Shown: positions 3,730-49,339, numbered from the stretch's first letter. The stretch is DNA of 49,339 nt from an uncultured Candidatus Peribacteria bacterium (GCA_964495825.1 CAZBWI010000041.1:1-49339); one strand, 5' to 3'. Notes: generated by a model from the sequence alone, not told the origin. Numbers and translations are program-made.

Positions 3730-3839
3730 ATATCTACTATATCATTACGTTACAAAAAAATCAAGTGGAAGCGTTGACCTTGAATTTTTCGAGTAAGTGG
3801 ATATAGGTACAATACTTCATTTTATTGTTATGTTACACG

Positions 3840-6488
3840 ATGGCGAACGCATATCAACACCAAGAAGTAGAAGCAAAACGAGAAAAATTTCGAGAAGAGC
3901 ATAAGTGCTTTGCTGCTACCATGGATCCTCAAAAACCAAATTATAGCATTGTAATTCCTCCTCCAAATGTAACAGGCGTATTGCATATGGGACATGTCCT
4001 GAATAACAGTATTCAGGATGTTTTGATACGTCGAAAAAGAATGAGCGGATACAATACTTTATGGATGCCGGGAACGGATCATGCAGGTATTGCAACTCAA
4101 AATAAAGTTGAAAGAAAACTTGCTGAAGAAGGCAAAACCAAAGAAGATATTGGAAGAGAAGAATTTATCAAAAAAACCCGAGAACGAAAAGAAAAACATG
4201 GAAATATTATTACCGAACAACTCAGGAAACTTGGAGCATCATTGGATCGAGATAGAGAAAGATTTACGATGGACGAATGACTTTCTGCAGCAGTCAAGGA
4301 AATTTTTATCAAACTCTACCATGATCATTTGATCTATCAATGAGAATATATGGTCAATCGATGTCCAAGATGTGGAACTGCATTAGCTGATGATGAAGTA
4401 GATCATCAAGAGGAAGATGGATTTTTTTGGGAGATACAATATCCGATTGTTGGAACTAATGATTTCGTTATCTTGGCTACAACAAGACCAGAAACAATGT
4501 TGTGAGATACAGGAATAGCAGTCAATCCTCACGATAAGAGATATCAGCACTTAATAGGCCAAAAAGTGCTATTACCATTGATGAATAGAGAGATTCCTAT
4601 AGTTGCTGATGAATATGTCGATATGGAATTTGGAACAGGAGTAGTCAAGATGACTCCGGCTCACGATCCAAATGATTATGAAGTTGCCAAAAGAACAGGA
4701 CTCGAAGTGATCAATATCTTTACTCCAGATGGTAAGATCAATGAAAATGGAGGGAAATATGCTGGATTGGATAGATTTGAAGCAAGAAAAGTTATTATCG
4801 AAGATCTCAAAAAAGAAGGATTACTTGGTACTATAAAACACCATACCCATGCTGTAGGACATTGTTATAGATGTGCTACTATTATCGAACCAAGAATTTC
4901 CAGACAATGGTTTGTAAAAATGGCACCATTAGCCAAACCAGCATTGGAAGTAGTAAAAAGCGGGAAAATAACAATTCAGCCAAAGAGACGAGAAAAGGTA
5001 TATTATCATCGATTGGAAAATATCCGTGATCGATGTATCTCCAGACAGATTCGACGAGGGCATAGGATTCCTGCATGGTACGGACCAGACAATACGGTAT
5101 TTGTAGCACATGATGAAGCTGAAGCGCTATCTCAAGCAGAAGCTCATTATGGGAAAAAGGTATCTCTCACCCAAGAACAAGATGTATTGGATACACGATT
5201 TAGCTCTGCGTTGCGGCCATTTTCTACAATGGGACGACCAGAGCAAACAGATTTGCTCAAAAGATTTTATCCAACTAATGTCCTTGTCACCGGTGCAGAT
5301 ATTATCTTTTTCCGGGTAGCAAGGATGATTATGATGGGGATGTATGAGATGAAAGAGATACCGTTTCATGATGTGTTTCTTCATGGAATTGTAAGAGATG
5401 AACAAGGCAGGAAGATGTCCAAATCTCTTGGAAATTCTCCTGATCCATTGGATTTGATAAGAGACTATGGAGCTGATGCTATCAGATTTACCATGATCTA
5501 CAATACTTCTCAAGGACAAGATGTCCATTTTTCGACTAAGCTCCTTGAGATGGGAAGGAATTTTGCGAATAAAGTACGAAATGTAAGCAACTTCGTATGT
5601 ATGAACCTAGAAGGATTTGATCATACCAACATACACGAATCTGACTTAACCCTGGAATTGGTCGATACGTGGATCTATTCTAGACTCCATTCTACGATCC
5701 AAACCGTAAATGACAAGCTTGATAAATATATCCTCGATGAAGCAGCCAAAGCAGTGTATGAATTTATCAAATGAGATTTTTGTGACCGATATGTGGAAAT
5801 GGCCAAAGTAAGGTTGTATAACAACAATGATAATAGAACTAAAACAACAGCACAATATGTATTGCGAGATGTACTTGAACAATCATTGAGATTACTGCAT
5901 CCGTTTATGCCGTTTGTGACAGAAGAATGTCGGCAAAAACTCGGTACTGGCAAACCAACCATTATGTTGGAAGCATATCCAAGTTTGGACAAAAACAAGA
6001 TTGTTCCAGACATAGAATCAGCGATGCAATATATCCAGGACGTCACAACATCTATCAGAAATATCAGAGCAGAAGCAAATGTTTCGCCTGCAAAACAAGT
6101 CATAGCATTGATCAAGACAGCAGATCAAACAGAGAAAGCAATACTCCAGACAAATACATCATTTATCATGAAATTAGCAAAACTAGAAACGCTAGAATAT
6201 GGTGAAGATATCTCAAAACCTGAATTATCATGATTCCGTGTTGCTTGAAAATCAGAGATTTATATCCCGTTGGCAGGATTGCTTGATATCCAAGCTGAAT
6301 CCAAAAAGATCACCGATCAGATAGAAAAATTGGAACAGTGATTAGCGTCATGTAGAAAAAAATTAGCAGACGAGACCTTTATGTCCAAAGCACCTGCACA
6401 AGTAATCGAAAGAGAAAAACATAACGAAGCAAATTATCTCGACAAAATCCAAAAACTAAAAAAGAATCTGGAATTACTACAAAAGTAG
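3840..6488 (+). CDS. valS: valine--tRNA ligase
   Basis: 882 aa. Joins track ORFs 3825..4280, 4566..5774 and 5793..6233 through TGA codons at Gly positions. Motifs [34 protein letters not shown] stop at 6486-6488. The ATG at 3840 is preferred over the TTG at 3825. Confidence 0.97.
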
Positions 6489-23193: not shown

Positions 23194-23366
23194 TCACTCA
23201 AATAATATTATATAAAAATGTCAATTATTTTTACCTATATATTTGTATATATACACAATACCAAGTGTTTTTCAAGGGTAAAAATTGCAAATTTTGGGGA
23301 AAGGAGTACAATTATATCGATACTCCAATACCTATTTTTTTAGCCATCATTACGCAATACATCATC

Positions 23367-23864
23367 ATGAAGAAATTTATGCTTGCAAGTATTATTATGT
23401 ATAGTTCGTTGATCCTCGTCTGATATGCCCAGATGGTAGTTCCTAATTCTGAGAATTATATTCTCAATGAAAATGATCAGCAGGTACTCAATACAGAAGG
23501 CATCGACGATCCATTGAGATGAGGTGCATATCATATCATCGAACCGGTAGGATGAGGAACAGGAATTGCAGGAGGAGTCGTAGGTATAGGTGATAAGATC
23601 TCTACTTATGAACATGCACAATCTAAGACGCTCAATGTTATTAAGAATATTATCAATTATGCGTTAGGGATGCTTGGACTTGTTGCACTTATTTACTTGA
23701 TCTATCACGGATTTTTGATCGTGACTGCTGCAGGTGATGATACTCAGTATAAGAAGTGAATTAAGGGAATAAAATTCGCTGCGATAGCTATCGCAGGTAT
23801 CGGAGCAAGCTGGCTTATCATCAGCGGTATCTTCCGACTTATCGCTTTAATTATTTGATCATAA
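23367..23864 (+). CDS. VirB2/TrbC-like T4SS pilin candidate (165 aa)
   Basis: Signal peptide, then two hydrophobic helices separated by the charged loop AAGDDTQYKK-G-IKG. Five TGAs. Replaces the antisense track ORF 23340..23621. Confidence 0.5.
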
Positions 23865-23871
23865 AAACACC

Positions 23872-24405
23872 ATGACATCATGTATTTGACAAAAAATTTG
23901 TAGATACCTACTCTATATTCTAGGGAGTATTTTTGCTGTAGGAAGCTTTATTCCTGCTATTTCTTTGTGACAGTTGTCCGATGCGGAATCAGCATTTCCT
24001 TATGATATTCAAGGACAAGAATATGATCCCAATACCGAAATACCTACAACGGATATAGCAACGGATATTATCAAGACTGATACTCAACAATCACAAAGTA
24101 TCCTTCAGAGACTGACAAATTATTTTAGATTGAGCGGGACATCGTATTATACCTGAACATCTCCAGCAACAAATTATGTGAAATGGATTCTTAACATGCT
24201 TTTGGGATTAGTGAGCTTTCTTTCATTGGTGATGGTTGTTTTTGCTTTTTACCTCATTTTCTTCTCCAAGTGAGATGATGCAGTTGGAAAAGCAAAGAAG
24301 ATTTTGATAGGTGTAGGTATAGCACTCGCAATTATGTGATTATCGCGATTTATCGCAAGTTTCTTCTTCGATATTTATGGAACCGTTACAGGAACTTGAG
24401 TATAG
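23872..24405 (+). CDS. VirB2/TrbC-like T4SS pilin candidate, paralog (177 aa)
   Basis: Same architecture as the previous gene (..VMVVFAFYLIFFSK-G-DDAVGKAKKILIGVGIALAIM..). Contains track ORF 23974..24156. Confidence 0.5.
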
Positions 24406-26581: not shown

Positions 26582-29500
26582 TTACTGTATGATTTTGCCA
26601 TTGTCCAAGGTGATGATATCATCCGCAAATTTTAGGATACTTTTGTCATGTTCGATCATCAAGATAGTATCTCCTTTATCTAGGAATTTTTTGATGACTT
26701 TCATTAGTTTCACGATATCGTCAGCATGTAATCACACTGTAGGTTCATCCAAAAAATACATGGTATGTCCTTTATATGATTTCAAGAGATGTTTCACCAA
26801 TTTCAATCTCTGGCTTTCTCCTCAGGATAAGGTATGCGCAGGCTGTCCCATCCTCAGATATCATAATCCAATATCCACCATGAGTTGTAACTCTTCGCGG
26901 ATATGATCGATTTCAGAAAAAAACTCTAGTGCATCTTTGACATACATATGCAAAACTTCATCGATACTTTTGCCTCTTCGTTTGATTCAAAGGATTTCTG
27001 TTTTGTACCTTTTCCCATTACATAATTCACATGGGATATAGGTATCCGGCAAAAATTGTAGTTCTACTTTTTTGTACCCATATCCATCACAGGCAGGACA
27101 AGCTCATTTATTAGAGTTGAAGCTATAATAGCTTGCATTGAACCCTAAATATTTACTCTCTGTTGTTCCTGCATACAATTGTCTGATATGATCAAAGGTT
27201 CATATGAAGGTCACTGGGCATGATCTTGGAGTTTTTCCGATACTCGTTTGATCAACATAGATGGTATTTTTGATTTCTTCATGACCGATAATAGTTTCTA
27301 CAGACAACTCTTTATAAAATGCTTGCATTGCGAGATTTTCGTAGTGTTCATATTCGTCTTTGTGCATGATCGGAGCAGAAAGGATATCAGTCCAGTTCCA
27401 TCATTTTTTTAATAATTCCAATCTGATGAAACTCTGGATAAATTTCTGTTTTTCATTCAAAAATCTGAAGAGTGTTGTATACATCAGTGTTGTTTTTCCA
27501 GCTCCAGACGGTCAAGTGATAATAGTAAACGTTCCAAGTCTGATTTGTACATCAATATGTTGGAGGTTGTATTTCGATGCCTTTTTGATACTGATATAAT
27601 TGTTGGATGGCGTATGTTCGAAATGTGCAGTCACTTTTTTCTTGCCAAGGATGTATTGCGCTGTCAGTGTATTGGATGTCAAAAACTCATCGTATGGTCC
27701 GTTGAACATCACTTTCCCTCAGAAATCCCCAGCGCCTGGTCAGATTTCAACTACTCGGTCGGATGCTTTAATAAATTCCTCATTATGCTCGACGACAATG
27801 ATAGTATTGCCCATTTCTTTCAATTTCTTGATAGCAGTGATTGCTCTTGTGATTTCCCTCTGATCCAGACCGATAGTCGGTTCATCGAGGACATAAATAA
27901 TTCAGGTCAATTTATTCCCCAGTTGTTTCGCTAATCTTAACCTTTGGATTTCTCATCACGACAGCGTATCTATTCACCTATTTAGACTCAAGTATCCGAG
28001 TCCCAATTCCTGTATCGTTTTGGCTCTGTCGATGAGAGGGTTGACGATTCTATCGACGAGCGTCCTATCTTTGGTATTGTGTTCCTTGTACATATCGATG
28101 AATGCGATAAGTCCATTCAGCGGCATTTTCTGTAAATCTGCTATATTGATCTTAGATCCATGATGCATGATTCATGATGCAAGTTGTTTATCTTGAATCT
28201 TGTGTTTTGAATCTTGTATCTTAAGAAATACATTCAGACTCTCTTTCTTGAGTTTTGCTCCATTACATTCCGGACAGGTTTTCATATCGAGCATCGCTTG
28301 GAAATCTACCGTTAAAAGTCCTTTTGCATACTGATCTTTGACGATTTCTTCGATACCTTTGTAATACATACTCATATATTTCCCGCCATAATTTACTCTA
28401 ATCAGCTCTTCATCGCCAAAAAGGACGACATGTTGAAACCATTCCGGCAAGTCTTTCCATAATTTATCTGGATCGATGCTATATTTCTGTGCTAATTTCA
28501 ATAATAACGACTGTCCAAGGTTTGAGTCTCTCCGCGGTAAAATCGCTTTCATGTATGGACTCATCGGATCTACTATTTTATCAATATCAACTTGCAAGAT
28601 TTCTCCGATACCGTGACAAAGTGTACATGCTCCTTCTTGTCTATTTGGTGAGAAATGCTGTGGTGTAAATTCCGGATAGGTGATATTACAGTCAGGACAA
28701 TACATTTTATCGGTGAACCACTGAATATGGTCACAGGTTGTAGGTCATAGGTTGTAGGTTGTTTTTTTGCGACTTGTTCCCTGCGACTTACTCTCTGTTG
28801 TTCCTGTTATGAAGATTCAGAATTTTTTGAATTCTCATAATATCTTGATAATATCTTCTTTTAATCTTCCTAATTTTTGTTCTTCCACGGTCACTCTATC
28901 GTAGATACCATAGATATTGATAGGGAAATATTCAGCAGGGATATTTGGCGTCTCGAGGTAGAAATACTCAATTGGGTCAAGTGATTTGGGACTAGGGATC
29001 AGGTTCTGTTTTTTAGTTTTTGTATTCTTATCATTTGTCCCTTGTTCCTGTTCCCTCTTCATGTCAGCGACGATGAGGTAACGCGTGAATCATTTTCCCT
29101 TTTCTACTTTATTTCTATTTTTCCTCACGAATTCCATGAGATCTTCCTTCTTTTCAACATGGCCTGATTCCTGGAGAAGATATATTTTCTGACCCATATA
29201 ATGCTCTTGGATTTCATTCATGACTTGCTCTATGGTCTGTGGTTTGATTACTTTCCCACAGTTGTAGCAATAACTATCTCCAAGTTTGGCATACAATAAT
29301 CTCAAATAGTCATCGATTTCCGTGAGCGTTCCGACCGAGCTTCTCGAATTACCTCATTTTTTGTTCTGTTCTATCGCTATGGCAGGGGAGAGTCAACTAC
29401 AATGATCGATTTCTGGTCTTTCTCCTAAATTAAAAAACTGTCTTAGATAGGAACTCAAAGATTCTATATATCTATATTGTCCTTCTTTGTAGATCGTATC

Positions 29501-29680
29501 GAAGGCGAGCGATGATTTCCCTGATCCGGAGACGCCCGTGATGGTGATCAGTTTGTTTTTTGGTATTTCGACATCGATATCTTTGAGATTATGAGTTTTT
29601 ACTCCTTGAAATGTTATTGTCGCTTCGTGATTGTTCATTGGTAGTTCGATGTTTTTCTTGGGCATGAGGTGTGTATACAT
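26582..29680 (-). CDS. uvrA: excinuclease ABC subunit A
   Basis: 1032 aa. Six track ORFs lie in one frame, and all gaps were scanned (only TGA). [74 protein letters not shown], second [20 protein letters not shown]. The start may instead be a downstream Met. Confidence 0.95.
28159..28225. repeat. short-word element (ATGAT.CATG words plus CTTGAATCTTG words) embedded in frame in uvrA
   Basis: ccATGATGCATGATTCATGATGCaagttgtttatCTTGAATCTTGtgttttGAATCTTGtatctt. The same two word types occur in the intergenic element at 37321-37434. Confidence 0.6.
28731..28806. repeat. short-word imperfect palindromic element embedded in frame in uvrA
   Basis: Left arm caggttgtaggtcataggttgtaggttg, right arm gcgacttgttccctgcgacttactctctgttgttcctgtt. 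aggttg pairs with cgactt via G-T pairs on the + strand. It encodes ..[25 protein letters not shown]... Confidence 0.55.
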
Positions 29681-40402: not shown

Positions 40403-41245
40403 ATGATAAAATTTGTCGTTCCGAAGCCAGTCAAAAAAATCAAAAGAAAATATACCCCTATCGAATCAGATAAAAAAAACATACGTCCCTGATTTCGCTT
40501 TTTTTCTATAAAGATTGTATGGATTGTTTTTATTATATTTGCAGGTATCTACTGATGATTCCTTTTGTTGAAACATACTATCTTTGATCATCAGTATACG
40601 ATAAAAAGAGTGCTCTATGATTCGTGAGATGTTGCTTGGTATGATGAGCCATATATGTATAGACGTATTACTGATTGGATCAGAGGCGAGAACTACTATG
40701 TTGTGAAATGGTATACTTCCAGGATACTCAAAGATATCCAATCCAAATATCCCATAATCACGGATATCGGTATAGATTACCGTTCTACCAATACGGTTTT
40801 CGTGAAATTAACCTTTAACCCTATAGATATGGTGATTAGAAATCAAGAGATGAGATGGGCATTGGTTGGTAATGTATTGTTACCGTTGTATTCTGGGAAT
40901 AAGATAGCCGACGGTATCAAAATCTTGGATATGCCTGAATATCTGAGCGGTATGAATGTGTTGTCTGGTATATTCTTCAAAATTCCTGCAGAGCAACTGA
41001 CGATGCAGATAGAACTTCTATATCAATGATTTCCATGACTTCACCATATAGAATATCTTCCGTGATGAGAAAGATCTATCATTTATCTCGATGGTAAAAA
41101 ATACTATATCAACAATCTCGGAGATATTCCAAATCAGATCAGGAATTATCAATTACTCAAAAAATATTATAAAGATTTTAATTCGCTGTATGAGATCGAC
41201 TTGGGAAGCTTGGAAAAAGACAAGGTGATTGTACGTAAATTCTAA
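40403..41245 (+). CDS. FtsQ/DivIB-like cell division protein
   Basis: 280 aa. Basic N-terminus, one TM (IVWIVFIIFAGIY-GG-FLLL), then a POTRA-like region (..YPIITDIGIDYRSTNTVFVKLTF..). Track ORF 40655..41029 extends both ways. Lies near murE. Confidence 0.5.
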
Positions 41246-43077: not shown

Positions 43078-43108
43078 GCTCTACTATTAATGGTAGAGGG
43101 CTTTTTTT
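43078..43108 (+). terminator. rho-independent terminator after sufS
   Basis: ctctac(43079-43084)/gtagag(43093-43098), followed by a T-run at 43102-43108. Confidence 0.65.
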
Positions 43109-43176
43109 GTAAAACGACATGTTTCTAGGTATACTATTACTGTAGTTTATAATCTTTAGATATTAGACCAGATATC

Positions 43177-46100
43177 ATGACAACAACAACCCAGGTAGAG
43201 ACATTGCAGATTAATGTAGATCAAATCACTGCAGATTTGGCTGAAGCGAAAAAACTCACTGACGAGACGCTCAAGAAGACAAAGGCCGAAGCAGCACTGC
43301 TTAAAGCGGAAACCGCTAAGACATCGATAGAGAAAGCCAAGGAAGAAGCAAATAAGAAACTGGAGGCGCTCAAGAACAAGACCGATGCTACTTCCAAAGC
43401 AGAAGCAAGGGAATTGGAAGCAGAAATCAAGGAATATGAGGATATGCTAGTTACGCTAGATTCCACGAAGACAGAATTGATGACCCTCAAGACCGGTGTA
43501 ACGACTCCAGTAGAAACTCCGTCAACCAACAATGAAACCGTCGATAATACTTCTGATCTCGACAAGATTACTGCCGGCATAGCGGAATTGAAGACGATGG
43601 CTACTGCACTTCAGACATTAGTCGATGATTTCAAAAAAAATAAAGAGACACTGACAGAAACGGAAAAGACCGCCAAGCAAAAAGAGATAGATGACAAAAA
43701 AGCCGCTATGGAGGTCAAAAGAAAAGAGATACAGGATCTGATAGATAAAATAAGGAAATGACGATCCGACGTGAAATTCGACGACATCGAAGATCAGACA
43801 ATCAGGGAAACGCTCAAGGATCAGAAGCTCAAGGAAGAAGCGACACTCAAGGAGAATGAAAAAGAGCTCAAGGAGATTATAACGCCTTCGACCACCTTCC
43901 GGGAAAAAGTGAAAGAGAGAGCAAATAAAACCCGATGATGGGTCAAAGAGCATCCACGGCAAACAGCCGGTATAGCGACAGGAGTCGGTTTAGTCATCCG
44001 AGGAATCAGCAGATTATTCAGAAGGAAAAAGAAAAAGAGCGAAGAAGGTGAAGAGGAAAGCAAGGAAAAGAAATGATTTTGGGATCGCCGATATGGAAAA
44101 GCGCTGAAGCGGTGATTGATCGGTACAGGTATCCGGTTCATCGGTAAGGGATTGATTACCGGCAAACGGCCTCGATCCAAAGAAGAAGGAACCGGCGCTG
44201 ATGCAGGCGATGTTATGAAGTCGACAGAAAACGGAGCGAAAAGCTTCGAAAAATTGCAGAAGGAAGATAAGGAAACTGCGGAAAGCTTGAATACCGTCGG
44301 CGATAAAGTGAATGCGCTCTATGACGATGTCTATAAATTCAATGACGGCACTATCCCCGAATCCATGGAAAAAACAAAACTCGGTGCGGGTAAAGATAAA
44401 TATGCCTGAGCGATACCGCTTGCATTGCAGAATACCTTCGGCGATATCAACGATATGGAAGGACAGAAATGATTCTTTACGATCTGTTCGTACAGCACGC
44501 TGACAGAGATCAAAAAAGAATTTGCAAGCATGATAGCGAACGGATTAGCAACTGTAGCAAGCAATACCTTGTCTATCTTCGGATTCTCATGACTATTGGA
44601 CAAGGATAATGTCGAAGCTAAGGTTGAGGAATTCCTCTGAGGAACGAATAAGATAGACGAGGTGCATTTGGTGTTCAGAAATATCCTTAAAGTGATGTCC
44701 TATACCAACTACCTGGAAACCGCATATCTCGCCAAAGAGATAGATACGCAAGTGAAAGTTTGAAAGACATTATATAAGAAGAAGGATGATGGTACCTATG
44801 AAACCATAACCTTCCCGACAGACGAAAAGGAAATAAAGGAACTGATAACGAATATGCAGTATCATCCATCGGATTATAAAATAGGGACCACGGATGTCGA
44901 TGATCTGAGAGATGAATTCAGATCAAAAAAGCTTTCCGAGATATTTACTACCTACTCGATGACTACAGCTGATATACTGAAGTATAACTACGACATCACC
45001 GATGATCTGAAATCCATCAATGATAAGAGGGATGAAACCGTTGATAATCTTACCGCTGACAATAAGGAAAAAACACTTGAAACGCTCAAGAGCGGAGTTG
45101 AGGATGAAATAGCTGACGGAATGCGGGAATCAACCAAAAGATTATTCCCTTTCTTGCATATCACGGAGATTAGACGGGATGAGACGGCGACCAAGAAAAA
45201 AATCAAGGAAGATGCATGATTCAAAAAGATATTAGCTGATTTTTATACGAAATTCGATGAATTGAAAAAAGAGACGGATATGACCAAAGTCAAAGCATCT
45301 ATAGATGAATACTATGCTACGCTCAAGGAATTGCGCACTACGCAGAATAGTATCGTGGATATGACGGACAAGAACGGAAATATCCTAGTTGGAGCTGTTA
45401 CAACATTCACCTCTACATTCACGTGAATCGGGTATTGCTTCACACATGGTGCACAACTCATCTATGAATGAGAATATCTGAAATGAGCGGCATATCTGTA
45501 TGGAGGAGTATCGTCTGTAGCAGTTATAGGAAATCTAGTATGATTATCAAAATCTAACAGCGTACTTGGAACAGCGACCAGACGATCCACTAATATCGCT
45601 AAGGCCCCATTCAAAGTGATAGATGCGATGCTTCCCAAAAGTCTTATGCTTGCGAAGGTGACTGATTATATCCCAACTTGTCTCGCAAAGACATGGTATA
45701 ACACTCCCAAAGCGATTACTGGATGACTGAGCCGCGGTATGTCTTTCCAAAAAGCGTATAGTCTTTATAAAGCAGTGGGTCCCTGCGGAGAAACAGCAAA
45801 ATGATTTTTCACTGACGTGCTTAATATCGAAGGAAAAGATAGAGCATTCCTTACAAGGTTGGAAAAAATCGTATTCAAAGATAAAAAAATGACAGATATA
45901 GGAAAACAGTTTTTAGAAGAAGCGGTAAATAGACCATCGATTTTCAGTACAAAAAAAACAGTGAATGTATTCGATCTGGATAATCTTGTCACCAAATATG
46001 AAGGCATCATACAGGCAAATGCTGCTGATGAGGCTCTGCTTACTGGTGTTAGTAATGTAGCGAAGTATACAGGTGATTTGTGAGATCTTACGACATTAGC

Positions 46101-49100
46101 GGGCAGCTATACCAATTTATTTGCTAAGGGAGATAATGTAAATACCTTAACAGTCAAAATTCTTAAGGAACGATGAACTGCGGAAGGTAATGCAAGCAAG
46201 TATTTAGATTTAACAAACACGGAACAGATTTCCAAAGCCAAGGCATATGCTGAAAAAGTAATGGAACTCAATAATAATGCGGCAGAGTGAGCTGTAGAGA
46301 CAACAAAGATAGGAAAAGCTCGGGAATCAGCAAAAACGATGTTCAAAGAGGGTATGGAAAAAATCAAAAGCTTATTCAGTTCTAACAAGACGCTCTCTGC
46401 TGCACAGAAGACAGGATTGGAGGAATGAATAAATAAATCAATACAAGAAACCGAATCCATTACATGAGAAACCGTAGAAAAAGCTGCAAAAAATCCGGCA
46501 GGAGAAGAAGCAAAGACTGTTGCAGGTGCAATGCAAGGAAAGATAGGAATCCGGGCTAGAGTATTGAAACGGAGTCCATTGCTGATAGACGGAATCATAA
46601 ATATATTCAGAGGTGTAGGTATGATGAATGAAGCTGATGAAATCTCAGAAATCAATGTGGAAAGAGGATCAGTAAGGGAAGAAAAGGCAACATTCACGTT
46701 AACATTGGCAGGAGTTGAATTGACCGTCTTTGCAGTAGGTGTCGCATTGAGTCGGAATCCCGCATGACGGGTCATCCTTGCCATCACCGTTGGAATCGAA
46801 GCGCTCAAATACGGAGTGAATAAATATTATGAAGTAGTGGAGACCTATTACAGGAATTTCGAGGATTTCAAGAGGATGCATATGGCGCATATCAAACAAG
46901 AGATCATCTCCAAGGAAGCTCGGGGAGATGGAATAGATATCTCTCTTCAGGAGAATTTCCAGGAAGCGGTATGAGCGGTATTTGGTTCAGCATGTCATGG
47001 CGAAGGCAAGAAGATACTTTCATTGAAGACCAGGGAAGATGCGTTGAGGGCATTGATCCGGATGGAAGAATGCGAGAATTATCCGTATGCGACATTGAAT
47101 CTCGATTCGTTTAAGGGAACGGAATATACCGAATTGCAGACAGAGGTCAATAAACAGAGCGATGCGATGAAAGCCGATAGTGTGACGAGATTCAATTATA
47201 TCAAAGAGAAATACGGAGACAAATTTATCGCCGCTGAAAAGATAGAAAGTGCAGGAGGAAAAGAAGAATTAGATAGGGTGCTCTTGGAGTCGAGGGAATA
47301 TCTTGCGATGACCAAGGACACGACAACGACAGCTACGGATATCGATACGTATCAGGCAGAGAGGCTTGCAAAACTCAAGGAGAATACATGATTTGAAAAA
47401 TTGGAAGCTATCTATGCATCCAATCCGTTGCAGTTCCACAAGATCATGAAGTCATTTCCGTACTACAGCTTTCTGTTCCAACAGTTCGACAAGGACACGT
47501 ATGCAGATTATGACAAAATCAAGACAAATATGGATTATGTGGTGCAATATTACAGCTACAAGACATTCTGATTGCTTCCTTCGAATATCCCTGATATCAC
47601 GGTAGATGCTGACAAGGTTGATTATTCCATGATGGAGATATTCTTCAAGGAGTTCACTGTCAAACCGACGGGATTGACCAAAGAGGATCTAGGAGAAGCA
47701 TTCAGTAACAATCAGCTTGATATCATGACGCCGGATATGGTGGAAAGTCAGGAAAGCGTATCGGCTTCATTATGACAGAATGTCCTCTATAGGATAGCTA
47801 AGGAAGTGCTCGGAGGATATCGCGGAAAAAATGATCTGGATGATCTTAAACAATTTTATTTGCCATCTGAAAAGGAAAGAAATGGTATCTATTATGAGGA
47901 CGGTGAATGGATGCTTAATCAGACGTCCAGTCGATATAGTGTCAATCGATGGGCCCCGACTGCTACTCCAATTTATAATGCGATGGGAATAGGAACATCA
48001 GACAAGGATAAGACTTTTGCAACCGATGATACCTTGGATGATGTAGAAAAAATAACAGCATTATCTGAAGTAGTGTCCAGATTTACCACGGAAAGTATTT
48101 TCCATGGGAAAATGATTCATACCGATACAGGAACGGGTGATGAGCTAATCAATGCAGAATACGGAAGTATGATAAATGATATCATCAAAGAGGAATTGGC
48201 TTACAGGAAACCGGAATATGTTACTAAAATAAAGGATGAGGCGCTTGAATATATCAAGGATAATAGCGATGGCAAGTATATCCCATTATCATCCGATCTG
48301 ATCAATAAGTTGACTAAAGCCGGTGTAGAGAATATCTGATATTATTATTATATACGAGATGGTACCAAGGTAAGCGCGTTAGAAGCAATAAAAGGCGCTA
48401 TACCGACCTTCTTGGCATCCAAAAAATGCTGATTGACAGAGAATGTGGAAACATATAATGTAAAGAAAATAGAATATTCCGATGAAATCAAACAAGAGAT
48501 AGCTGTTATAGATACATCTATCGCTAAATTGTCAGCAACGATATTATTGGACGACGAAGATCTGGATGTTCAAGACGATATCAAAAAGATGATAGCCAAA
48601 AAAGCATTGAAACGGACCGAGCTGAAGACAGAGCTCAATTATATGGACCAGGGAAAAGCAAAAATTCTCCTAGATAAAAAATACGAAGAATTCAAGACAT
48701 TCTTTGAAAATACATATTTGATGATATTGCATTGTGCATCGGCAGGTTCCAGTAACGACGTAGATACCTATGACGATTACCTGAGCATCAGTACATATTC
48801 ATCGGCATCTTTGGTGGATTTCAAAACTGATAGCGGAACGATGCAGGCGAGCGTGGCTATACCAGATTTCAAGTATACCGATGAATTTAATGCTACGATA
48901 CTGACCTATGAGATACCTGGAACCAAAAAGAAAATTCCAGATCTCTTGAATTCCAATAATGCTGATGATATAACATTATGAAAAAAATATGCAGAAGCGG
49001 TCTTGAAATCCGTACTTGAATCAGCAATGTTGGATTTCGATGCTAATGGTGCAGCAAATGCTGTATACAATGCTGGAAACCGTGATGTAGATAATGAAAT

Positions 49101-49194
49101 GCTTCAGAAAAGGTTGGTATATAATATAGCTGCCGTGGATTCGGAAGTATCAGCATCAAAGTCAAAAGACGATAATACATCAACAGATGAATAA
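43177..49194 (+). CDS. giant membrane-associated protein, unknown function (2005 aa)
   Basis: Ten track ORFs (43177..43761 through 49003..49194) all share one frame. Every inter-ORF gap was read triplet by triplet and contains TGA but no TAA/TAG. Coiled-coil K/E/T-rich N-terminus, TM clusters near codons 255-330, 770-800 and 1130-1170, acidic C-terminus. TAA at 49192-49194. Confidence 0.8.
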
Positions 49195-49250
49195 ATAAAA
49201 TTTGGGTCTAGAGTAGTTGAAAAGGTTTAAATTATCATTATAACCAGTTC

Positions 49251-49339
49251 ATGACTACTAAAAACCCCTATAGAAAAAATAGCCACTTGTGAGTGTGAAA
49301 AACTAGAGAAATTTTGAAGTATTTTTCTAAAGATTTAAC
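49251..49339 (+). CDS. 5' end of a CDS running off the window
   Basis: ATG 49251 then MTTKNPYRKNSHL-G-V-G-KTREILKYFSKDL... Too short to call. Confidence 0.3.

Follow-up and report, generated by a model that had tools for sequence, protein, structure and literature searches.

A giant gene of UGA-recoded Absconditabacteria, fragmented by standard-code annotation, and its possible role beside a peptidoglycan peptidase gene

The ten open reading frames (ORFs) that standard-code gene calling places between positions 43177 and 49194 of a contig deposited as an uncultured Candidatus Peribacteria bacterium (CAZBWI010000041.1:1-49339 in assembly GCA_964495825.1; the entire stretch of 49,339 nucleotides (nt) is referred to here as the window) are pieces of a single uninterrupted gene on the chromosome of an Absconditabacteria (SR1) bacterium in which UGA is read as glycine. 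Its product, 2005 amino acids (aa) long with an expected mass of 225 kDa, is a polytopic, mostly alpha-helical membrane protein. The strongest functional clue is the conserved pairing, in relatives, of the giant gene with a gene for a peptidoglycan peptidase. Judged from sequence, the giant protein may be the membrane platform of a two-gene module for cutting cell walls, coupled to a wall peptidase that has no signal peptide, and we consider this reading about equally likely to be right or wrong. The protein is real, confined to this lineage and apparently of a new kind, and we infer a wall-related role for it.

The single coding sequence (CDS) runs from ATG to TAA over 6018 nt and comprises 2005 sense codons, including 29 TGA codons in frame, and no TAA or TAG is found among the 2005 codons of the frame 43177-49194 on the plus strand. 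The closest in-frame stop on the 5' side is TAA at 43150. The resulting run free of TAA and TAG extends over 2013 codons and is the longest in the window, the runner-up of 1050 codons being more than two-fold shorter; based on trinucleotide frequencies of the window, the probability of such an open run by chance is about 10^-26. With translation table 11, ten plus-strand ORFs of at least 60 aa lie in the frame of the giant gene, while an eleventh (63 aa, 44312-44503) is out of frame. The gene appears in fragments because ORFs were called with the standard code. The initial annotation, which described the ten ORFs as sharing one frame with gaps formed only by TGA, was correct in this respect, and its claim of one gene instead of several is borne out by full-length colinear orthologs that other SR1 genomes carry at the corresponding locus. 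In the orthologs of L001 and L003, the two that were checked (related loci are designated by L and a number), internal TAA or TAG codons are absent. The gene as delimited here is:

43177-49194, plus strand: giant CDS with its TAA stop; 29 TGA (Gly), 25 CGA/CGG (Trp) and 5 TGG; colinear with full-length orthologs.

As read from codon meanings in valyl-tRNA synthetase (ValRS), UvrA and the giant gene, the code of the contig is TGA = Gly and CGA/CGG = Trp, in agreement with the translation initially suggested. For this, TGA, CGA and CGG codons were masked in UvrA and ValRS, and the sequences were aligned to solved structures. In the comparison of UvrA (26582-29680, minus strand) with PDB 3pih, 12 of about 16 aligned TGA codons fell on Gly, including the GG of the ATP-binding cassette (ABC) signature. 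In ValRS (3825-6488, plus strand), aligned with PDB 1gax, 15 of 20 CGA/CGG codons fell on Trp, a WW pair included, and 3 on Tyr. When the giant gene is compared with its L001 ortholog, 26 of 29 TGA codons stand opposite TGA or GGN, and 19 of 23 aligned CGA/CGG codons opposite CGA/CGG or TGG. In-frame TGA is present in every large ORF of the window.

Shulgina and Eddy (PMC8629427) reported the same code (UGA = Gly, CGA/CGG = Trp) from Absconditabacteria (SR1), together with an “advanced stage” of reassignment in one Absconditabacteria assembly. Across the window, CGA/CGG are commoner than TGG as Trp codons, and this preference looks like such an advanced stage. The giant product has Gly at its 29 TGA and Trp at its 25 CGA/CGG codons, with only 5 Trp encoded by TGG; the three Trp codons are distributed as 10 CGA, 15 CGG and 5 TGG, and their shares in the 38 other CDS are 47% CGA, 16% CGG and 37% TGG. 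No tRNA genes were found within the window.

A search with a profile built on the C-terminal 906 aa retrieved 179 representative clusters at E ≤ 1e-3, of which 64 at E ≤ 1e-30. Many of the 179 are fragments of 50-300 aa, the pieces into which standard-code gene calling shreds such recoded genes. Seven full-length homologs (1762-2010 aa) are colinear with the giant protein from the first residues on. Members of the family fall into two length classes, one of about 1700-2050 aa and the other of about 1260-1510 aa. Most full-length members are high in Trp and low in Gly, as UGA = Gly genes are when translated with UGA = Trp; the remaining ones have a normal composition, consistent with code 25 translation. 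Many in-frame TGA codons occur at all family loci for which DNA was available, and every member checked belongs to a UGA-recoded Absconditabacteria or related genome. The named sources are candidate division SR1, Absconditabacteria, “Peribacteria” and Patescibacteria UBA5124, and one ortholog of 1909 aa is listed by NCBI as a hypothetical protein. A word-index homolog search using a diverse core alignment of 15 sequences returned two proteins.

Two loci disclose the composite nature of the protein. In L007 (1-5733) and L008 (3592-10241) it is encoded by two adjacent ORFs, first the N-half and then the C-half, and the short members of 1260-1510 aa correspond to the C-half gene. Because the halves exist as adjacent separate ORFs in these loci, the 2005-aa protein is a fusion of two modules working together. 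The N-half comprises a charged head, a glycine-zipper pair and a variable helical region, and the C-half comprises three membrane helices followed by a domain of about 800-900 aa. In addition, a stand-alone copy of the charged head is located 5' of the giant gene in L002 (9245-9967), L005 (3092-4777) and L017 (975-1697), followed by a readable membrane anchor in L002 and L005, and a related upstream copy is present in L012 (138-1343) and L015 (509-1714). The window has no stand-alone head gene, the gap between the SufS-like gene and the giant gene being only 125 nt. Segments of the giant protein are as follows:

43177-43926, plus strand: aa 1-250, charged K/T/E-rich head, probably helical; assigned by composition, variable between orthologs.
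43963-44157, plus strand: aa 263-327, first hydrophobic pair, with zipper helix, basic loop and Trp/Gly-rich helix; Kyte-Doolittle.
44158-46542, plus strand: aa 328-1122, variable, mostly helical middle; AlphaFold2 (AF2) model poor, no fold match.
46543-46821, plus strand: aa 1123-1215, three conserved hydrophobic helices; Kyte-Doolittle, and long helices in AF2 with pLDDT of about 80-95.
46822-49131, plus strand: aa 1216-1985, conserved C-terminal domain, helical with small beta sheets; alignments and AF2.
49132-49194, plus strand: aa 1986-2005, acidic Ser/Thr/Asp-rich tail, and TAA; composition, low pLDDT.

The first 250 aa contain 16% K, 15% T and 14% E, with only 3 Pro and 3 Gly. This agrees with the K/E/T-rich N-terminus proposed initially, while its description as a coiled coil is not borne out: hydrophobic (heptad) periodicity of 3.5 residues was not significant in aa 1-240, and for this reason the segment is called a charged helical head. 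The N-terminus is hydrophilic and without a signal peptide. Kyte-Doolittle scans recovered the three clusters of hydrophobic helices expected from the initial reading, at aa 263-327, 736-792 and 1123-1215. In the first, a K/R-rich loop (aa 283-308, on average 9.0 K+R per 25 residues across homologs) joins a glycine-zipper helix (aa 263-282) to a Trp/Gly-rich helix (aa 309-327). The sole database hit of the whole giant protein is located here, a match of aa 256-274 to Pfam DUF883_C (PF19029; E 1.4e-6, 28.3 bits, cut-off 27). Hydrophobicity of the second pair, aa 736-792 (nt 45382-45552), is not kept across homologs. In the third cluster, the last two helices form a tight hairpin through an uncharged five-residue turn (SWNPAGW). 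Motifs of the C-terminal domain include, among others, YYRNFEDFK, IKQEI, MEECENYPYA, LLESR, QNVLYRIA, GIYYEDG, NxEYG and EELAYR. The whole protein has a net charge of -66 and ends in ...SKSKDDNTSTDE, in line with the D/S/T-rich C-terminus noted previously; tails of orthologs carry DDTK-type repeats.

Models of the two halves were of unequal quality. The C-half (aa 1100-2005, 906 aa) was modelled by AF2 from an alignment of 53 sequences, the first row of which is P0001, the same gene translated in code 4, so that its 29 TGA codons read W and its 25 CGA/CGG codons read R; mean pLDDT was 85.8 and the predicted template-modelling score (pTM) was 0.86. The N-half model (aa 230-1135) reached pLDDT of 60.8 and pTM of 0.45. 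Foldseek searches with the C-half model yielded no significant match in PDB (best E 0.46, TM-score ≤ 0.1) or in the viral library BFVD (best E 0.065, TM-score 0.09), and those with the N-half gave no fold match, a result that is uninformative with a model of such quality. Profile searches of the giant protein in Pfam, NCBIfam, PHROGs and PDB were empty except for the short DUF883_C helix, and Pfam detected no domain in three distant family members (about 1927 aa) or in two shorter C-half proteins. As judged from the model, the C-half thus appears to be a new fold, with no structural relative in PDB or BFVD and no sequence relative in Pfam, NCBIfam, PHROGs or PDB. Neither a Walker A motif nor a catalytic Pfam domain is present in the giant protein, which accords with the initial failure to recognise an enzymatic motif.

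Gene order around the giant gene is the same in every relative examined: DUF212, a 280-aa membrane protein, deaminase, SufS-like, giant gene, partner, LexA on the opposite strand, and RecA. The window keeps this order as far as the giant gene, and genes for a Mur ligase and Ddl lie near the giant/partner pair. The partner was surveyed in 17 related loci with downstream DNA, L002 and L017 being identical and counted as one. In 16 of them, the next plus-strand gene begins within about 60 nt of the giant stop, at distances of 2-57 nt, and encodes a protein of 300-544 aa with a peptidoglycan peptidase or Cys/His domain at the C-terminal side. This domain is M23 in L001, L002=L017, L018 and L022, VanY or Peptidase_M15_4 in L003, L004, L010, L011, L021 and L027, NlpC/P60 in L005, L008, L013 and L014, and YkuD_2 in L007; the Cys/His domain of L023 has no family assignment. 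Catalytic motifs are intact in the partners that were read, as illustrated by HKGID and HLH in the M23 domain of L001.

The N-terminal 140-170 aa of partners belong to a few conserved types which are freely combined with catalytic domains: type A is found with M23, VanY and NlpC/P60, and type B with M23 and VanY. A word-index search with the partner N-module returned four short fragments. The catalytic domain differs even between close relatives, since L001 and L005, with giant proteins 50-65% identical, have M23 and NlpC/P60 partners, respectively. Partner N-termini were scored in 12 cases (L011, L013, L014 and L023 were left out), and none of the 12 has a hydrophobic stretch resembling a signal peptide; net charge of the first 30 aa is between -2 and -13 in 11 of them and +1 in L010. 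Eight of the 16 partners end in Ala-Ala, compared with about 1 in 197 other ORFs of the same loci. These ends (LAA, IAA, MAA, VAA, QAA and AAA) span non-homologous catalytic domains, and the tail, which resembles a degron of the SsrA/ClpXP type, could be one, with a sorting signal as the alternative.

In the mechanism we propose, the N-module of the partner would dock on the giant protein, which in turn would export, anchor or activate the peptidase at the membrane. Partner copies that remain unengaged might be removed by means of the frequent Ala-Ala tail. Several observations weigh against a membrane platform of this kind. The two proteins are linked solely by the conserved adjacency of their genes, and motifs for an ATPase or any other form of energy coupling are absent from the giant protein. 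Between the partner and the convergent LexA gene no ORF was found in loci where the following gene was identified, so no immunity-like gene follows the partner. The positive-inside rule is conflicting as well: a cytoplasmic K/R loop would put the 262-aa N-terminus outside without a signal peptide. L025 has a lipoprotein gene downstream in place of the peptidase. Finally, the 145 nt between the giant stop and the end of the window show no partner-like start, and a partner gene would lie beyond them; an ATG at 49251 opens the frame of a basic peptide (MTTKNPYRKNSHLGVGKTREILKYFSKDL...), unlike the acidic partner N-termini of relatives. Because the window ends there, for this organism the pairing is deduced from relatives.

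With the giant protein as a platform for the peptidase, we lean slightly to the wall of a host, rather than the bacterium's own, as the one being cut, since close relatives exchange the catalytic domain in a manner known from polymorphic effectors. The absent signal peptide of the partner, domain swapping, and a predatory or episymbiotic lifestyle (PMC8080830) favour the host wall, while universality, fixed synteny and the missing immunity gene favour the bacterium's own. Lack of an immunity-like gene after the partner also weakens the classical polymorphic-toxin reading. A more far-reaching proposal is that the pair would constitute an envelope machine of UGA-recoded Absconditabacteria and their relatives, exporting interchangeable signal-less peptidases to breach the wall of a host or prey. 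We hold this to be unlikely; if true, it would be a new kind of effector-delivery system, on a fold without a known relative.

The pair can also be understood as a housekeeping device, in which the giant protein would control an autolysin as a lineage-specific analogue of FtsEX, switching on a wall hydrolase for growth of the cell or separation of its daughters. Peptidases of the M23, NlpC/P60 and M15 families serve bacteria as “space-makers” in the wall, and in FtsEX systems the hydrolase domain varies between lineages and the helical N-terminal part is kept. An apparently universal pair, syntenic among housekeeping genes (Mur ligase, Ddl, the 280-aa membrane protein) and devoid of an immunity gene, suits such a function. 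However, scans with Pfam, NCBIfam and motifs revealed no FtsX domain, ABC ATPase or Walker A in the giant protein. The known FtsEX partners (EnvC, PcsB, CwlO, RipC) carry Sec signal peptides, whereas no scored partner N-terminus has one, and exchange of M23 (L001) for NlpC/P60 (L005) between close relatives is unusual for a housekeeping enzyme. This explanation is possible, if somewhat on the unlikely side.

Attachment to a host was suggested in the initial annotation for the giant protein, which would then be an adhesin or a surface fibre, and the peptidase unrelated or merely co-transcribed. In accordance with this, the clade consists of episymbionts or predators, and the membrane protein is giant and has a long, variable and helical N-half; giant proteins with a supposed role in attachment are also reported to be enriched in the membrane proteome of Vampirococcus (PMC8080830). 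The features of the protein nevertheless make such a role improbable: it is mostly alpha-helical, it lacks a signal peptide, adhesin-type repeats and beta-rich domains, and no match of this kind was obtained in Pfam, PDB or Foldseek. Variability is usual among attachment proteins, and here there is a single gene in a fixed and conserved chromosomal position. Furthermore, the most conserved part adjoins the membrane helices instead of forming a variable tip, and pairing with a peptidase in 16 of 17 loci would be left unexplained.

The giant gene was reported initially as richer in G+C than its neighbours. The difference is real (G+C content (GC) of 0.407 versus 0.364 ± 0.023 in the 38 other CDS; 0.419 versus 0.359 ± 0.052 at third codon positions (GC3)), but it is small and falls inside the range of the contig, one neighbouring gene having a higher GC of 0.429. 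Codons ending in G are modestly enriched (GCG 0.23 versus 0.13, CCG 0.34 versus 0.23, AGG 0.42 versus 0.16). Because synteny is conserved, the slight excess does not suggest foreign origin. It is very improbable that the locus is a remnant of a mobile element or phage, with a tape-measure-like protein, a lysin and GC of foreign origin, since the superficial tape-measure likeness (a long, helical protein with glycine-zipper segments, adjoining a wall hydrolase) and GC slightly over the contig mean are opposed by the absence of PHROG hits, of a significant BFVD match and of phage genes nearby, by the same chromosomal position across a class-level clade, and by GC inside the range of neighbouring genes.

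Among identities tried for the giant protein itself, that of a phage tape-measure protein was rejected (no PHROG hit, best E of 0.065 in BFVD, housekeeping neighbours), as were those of FtsX, an ATPase and an adhesin (no Pfam domain of these, no Walker A).

The upstream terminator and AT-rich promoter attributed to the giant gene at the outset were located as terminator-like and promoter-like sites, both as consensus matches only:

43079-43108, plus strand: terminator-like hairpin CTCTAC-TATTAATG-GTAGAG, then T-run GGCTTTTTTT; consensus scan, with the hit placed at 43079-43098; ends the upstream SufS-like gene.
43107-43135, plus strand: promoter-like TTGTAA, 17 nt, TATACT; matches 9 of 12 consensus positions, 42 nt 5' of the ATG; consensus match only.

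The 145 nt that follow the giant stop (49195-49339) contain no terminator-like hairpin.

Among neighbouring genes, the 280-aa protein (40403-41245, plus strand) has one N-terminal membrane helix, and its position is conserved in loci where it was sought. Pfam gave no match for it; by eye only, its layout resembles FtsQ/DivIB. Elsewhere in the window, the pilin family PF18895 of type IV secretion matches two adjacent small genes (23265-24405, plus strand; E 1.4e-7 and 6e-5), the second match, of 23.5 bits, being below the cut-off of 26.6 bits. The segment 29735-35227 on the minus strand encodes a 651-aa and an 861-aa protein, both large and polytopic in the membrane, as well as a secreted protein of 273 aa. 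Pfam had no match for the 651-aa and 273-aa proteins, and the 861-aa protein was outside the scan. Pilin and membrane-protein genes together may be a cluster resembling type IV secretion, at a distance from the giant gene of about 8 kb (membrane genes) to 19 kb (pilins).

Merging of fragments is routine once the right code is applied, and the protein is already present in databases, labelled “hypothetical”. The giant gene, however, appears to belong to the core genes of an entire recoded lineage of bacteria, and the papers searched on Vampirococcus, Gracilibacteria and giant genes mention neither the family nor its pairing with a peptidoglycan peptidase of interchangeable type. The gene pair is a testable candidate for the way in which Absconditabacteria/Gracilibacteria open or remodel walls, either their own or those of hosts.

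Compared with known systems, the giant protein is similar to giant membrane proteins of Vampirococcus lugosii (PMC8080830) in belonging to the same group, in size class and in inferred membrane location. According to that paper, most of the latter carry WD40, PKD and other known interaction domains, none of which is found in the giant family; this comparison is made by description. Tail-anchored ElaB/DUF883 proteins share with it a charged helical head followed by a glycine-zipper membrane helix. The likeness extends to aa 256-274, just over the DUF883_C cut-off, and to the stand-alone head copies in L002, L005 and L017. In contrast to ElaB/DUF883 proteins, 1700 aa follow the membrane helix in the giant protein; the match spans only about 20 residues, and the full ElaB model NF007709 does not match (E 0.99).

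FtsEX with its coiled-coil hydrolases is comparable as a membrane complex coupled to a wall hydrolase in which the N-terminal part is kept and the catalytic domain varies. It differs in that the giant protein has no FtsX/FtsE homology and no ATPase, while the partners are signal-less, have intact catalytic motifs where these were read, and swap domains between close relatives. Secretion of polymorphic effectors, or of an endopeptidase by means of a holin, is exemplified by LXG effectors of the type VII secretion system (T7SS), peptidoglycan effectors of the type VI secretion system (T6SS) and ChiW/ChiX of Serratia. Unlike polymorphic effectors, the pair described here is not accompanied by an immunity gene and occupies one fixed housekeeping locus rather than variable islands; homology to known secretion components was not found, and the giant protein bears no likeness to a small holin. 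What it has in common with these systems is a signal-less partner composed of a conserved N-module and interchangeable wall-degrading domains, adjoined by a dedicated membrane protein.

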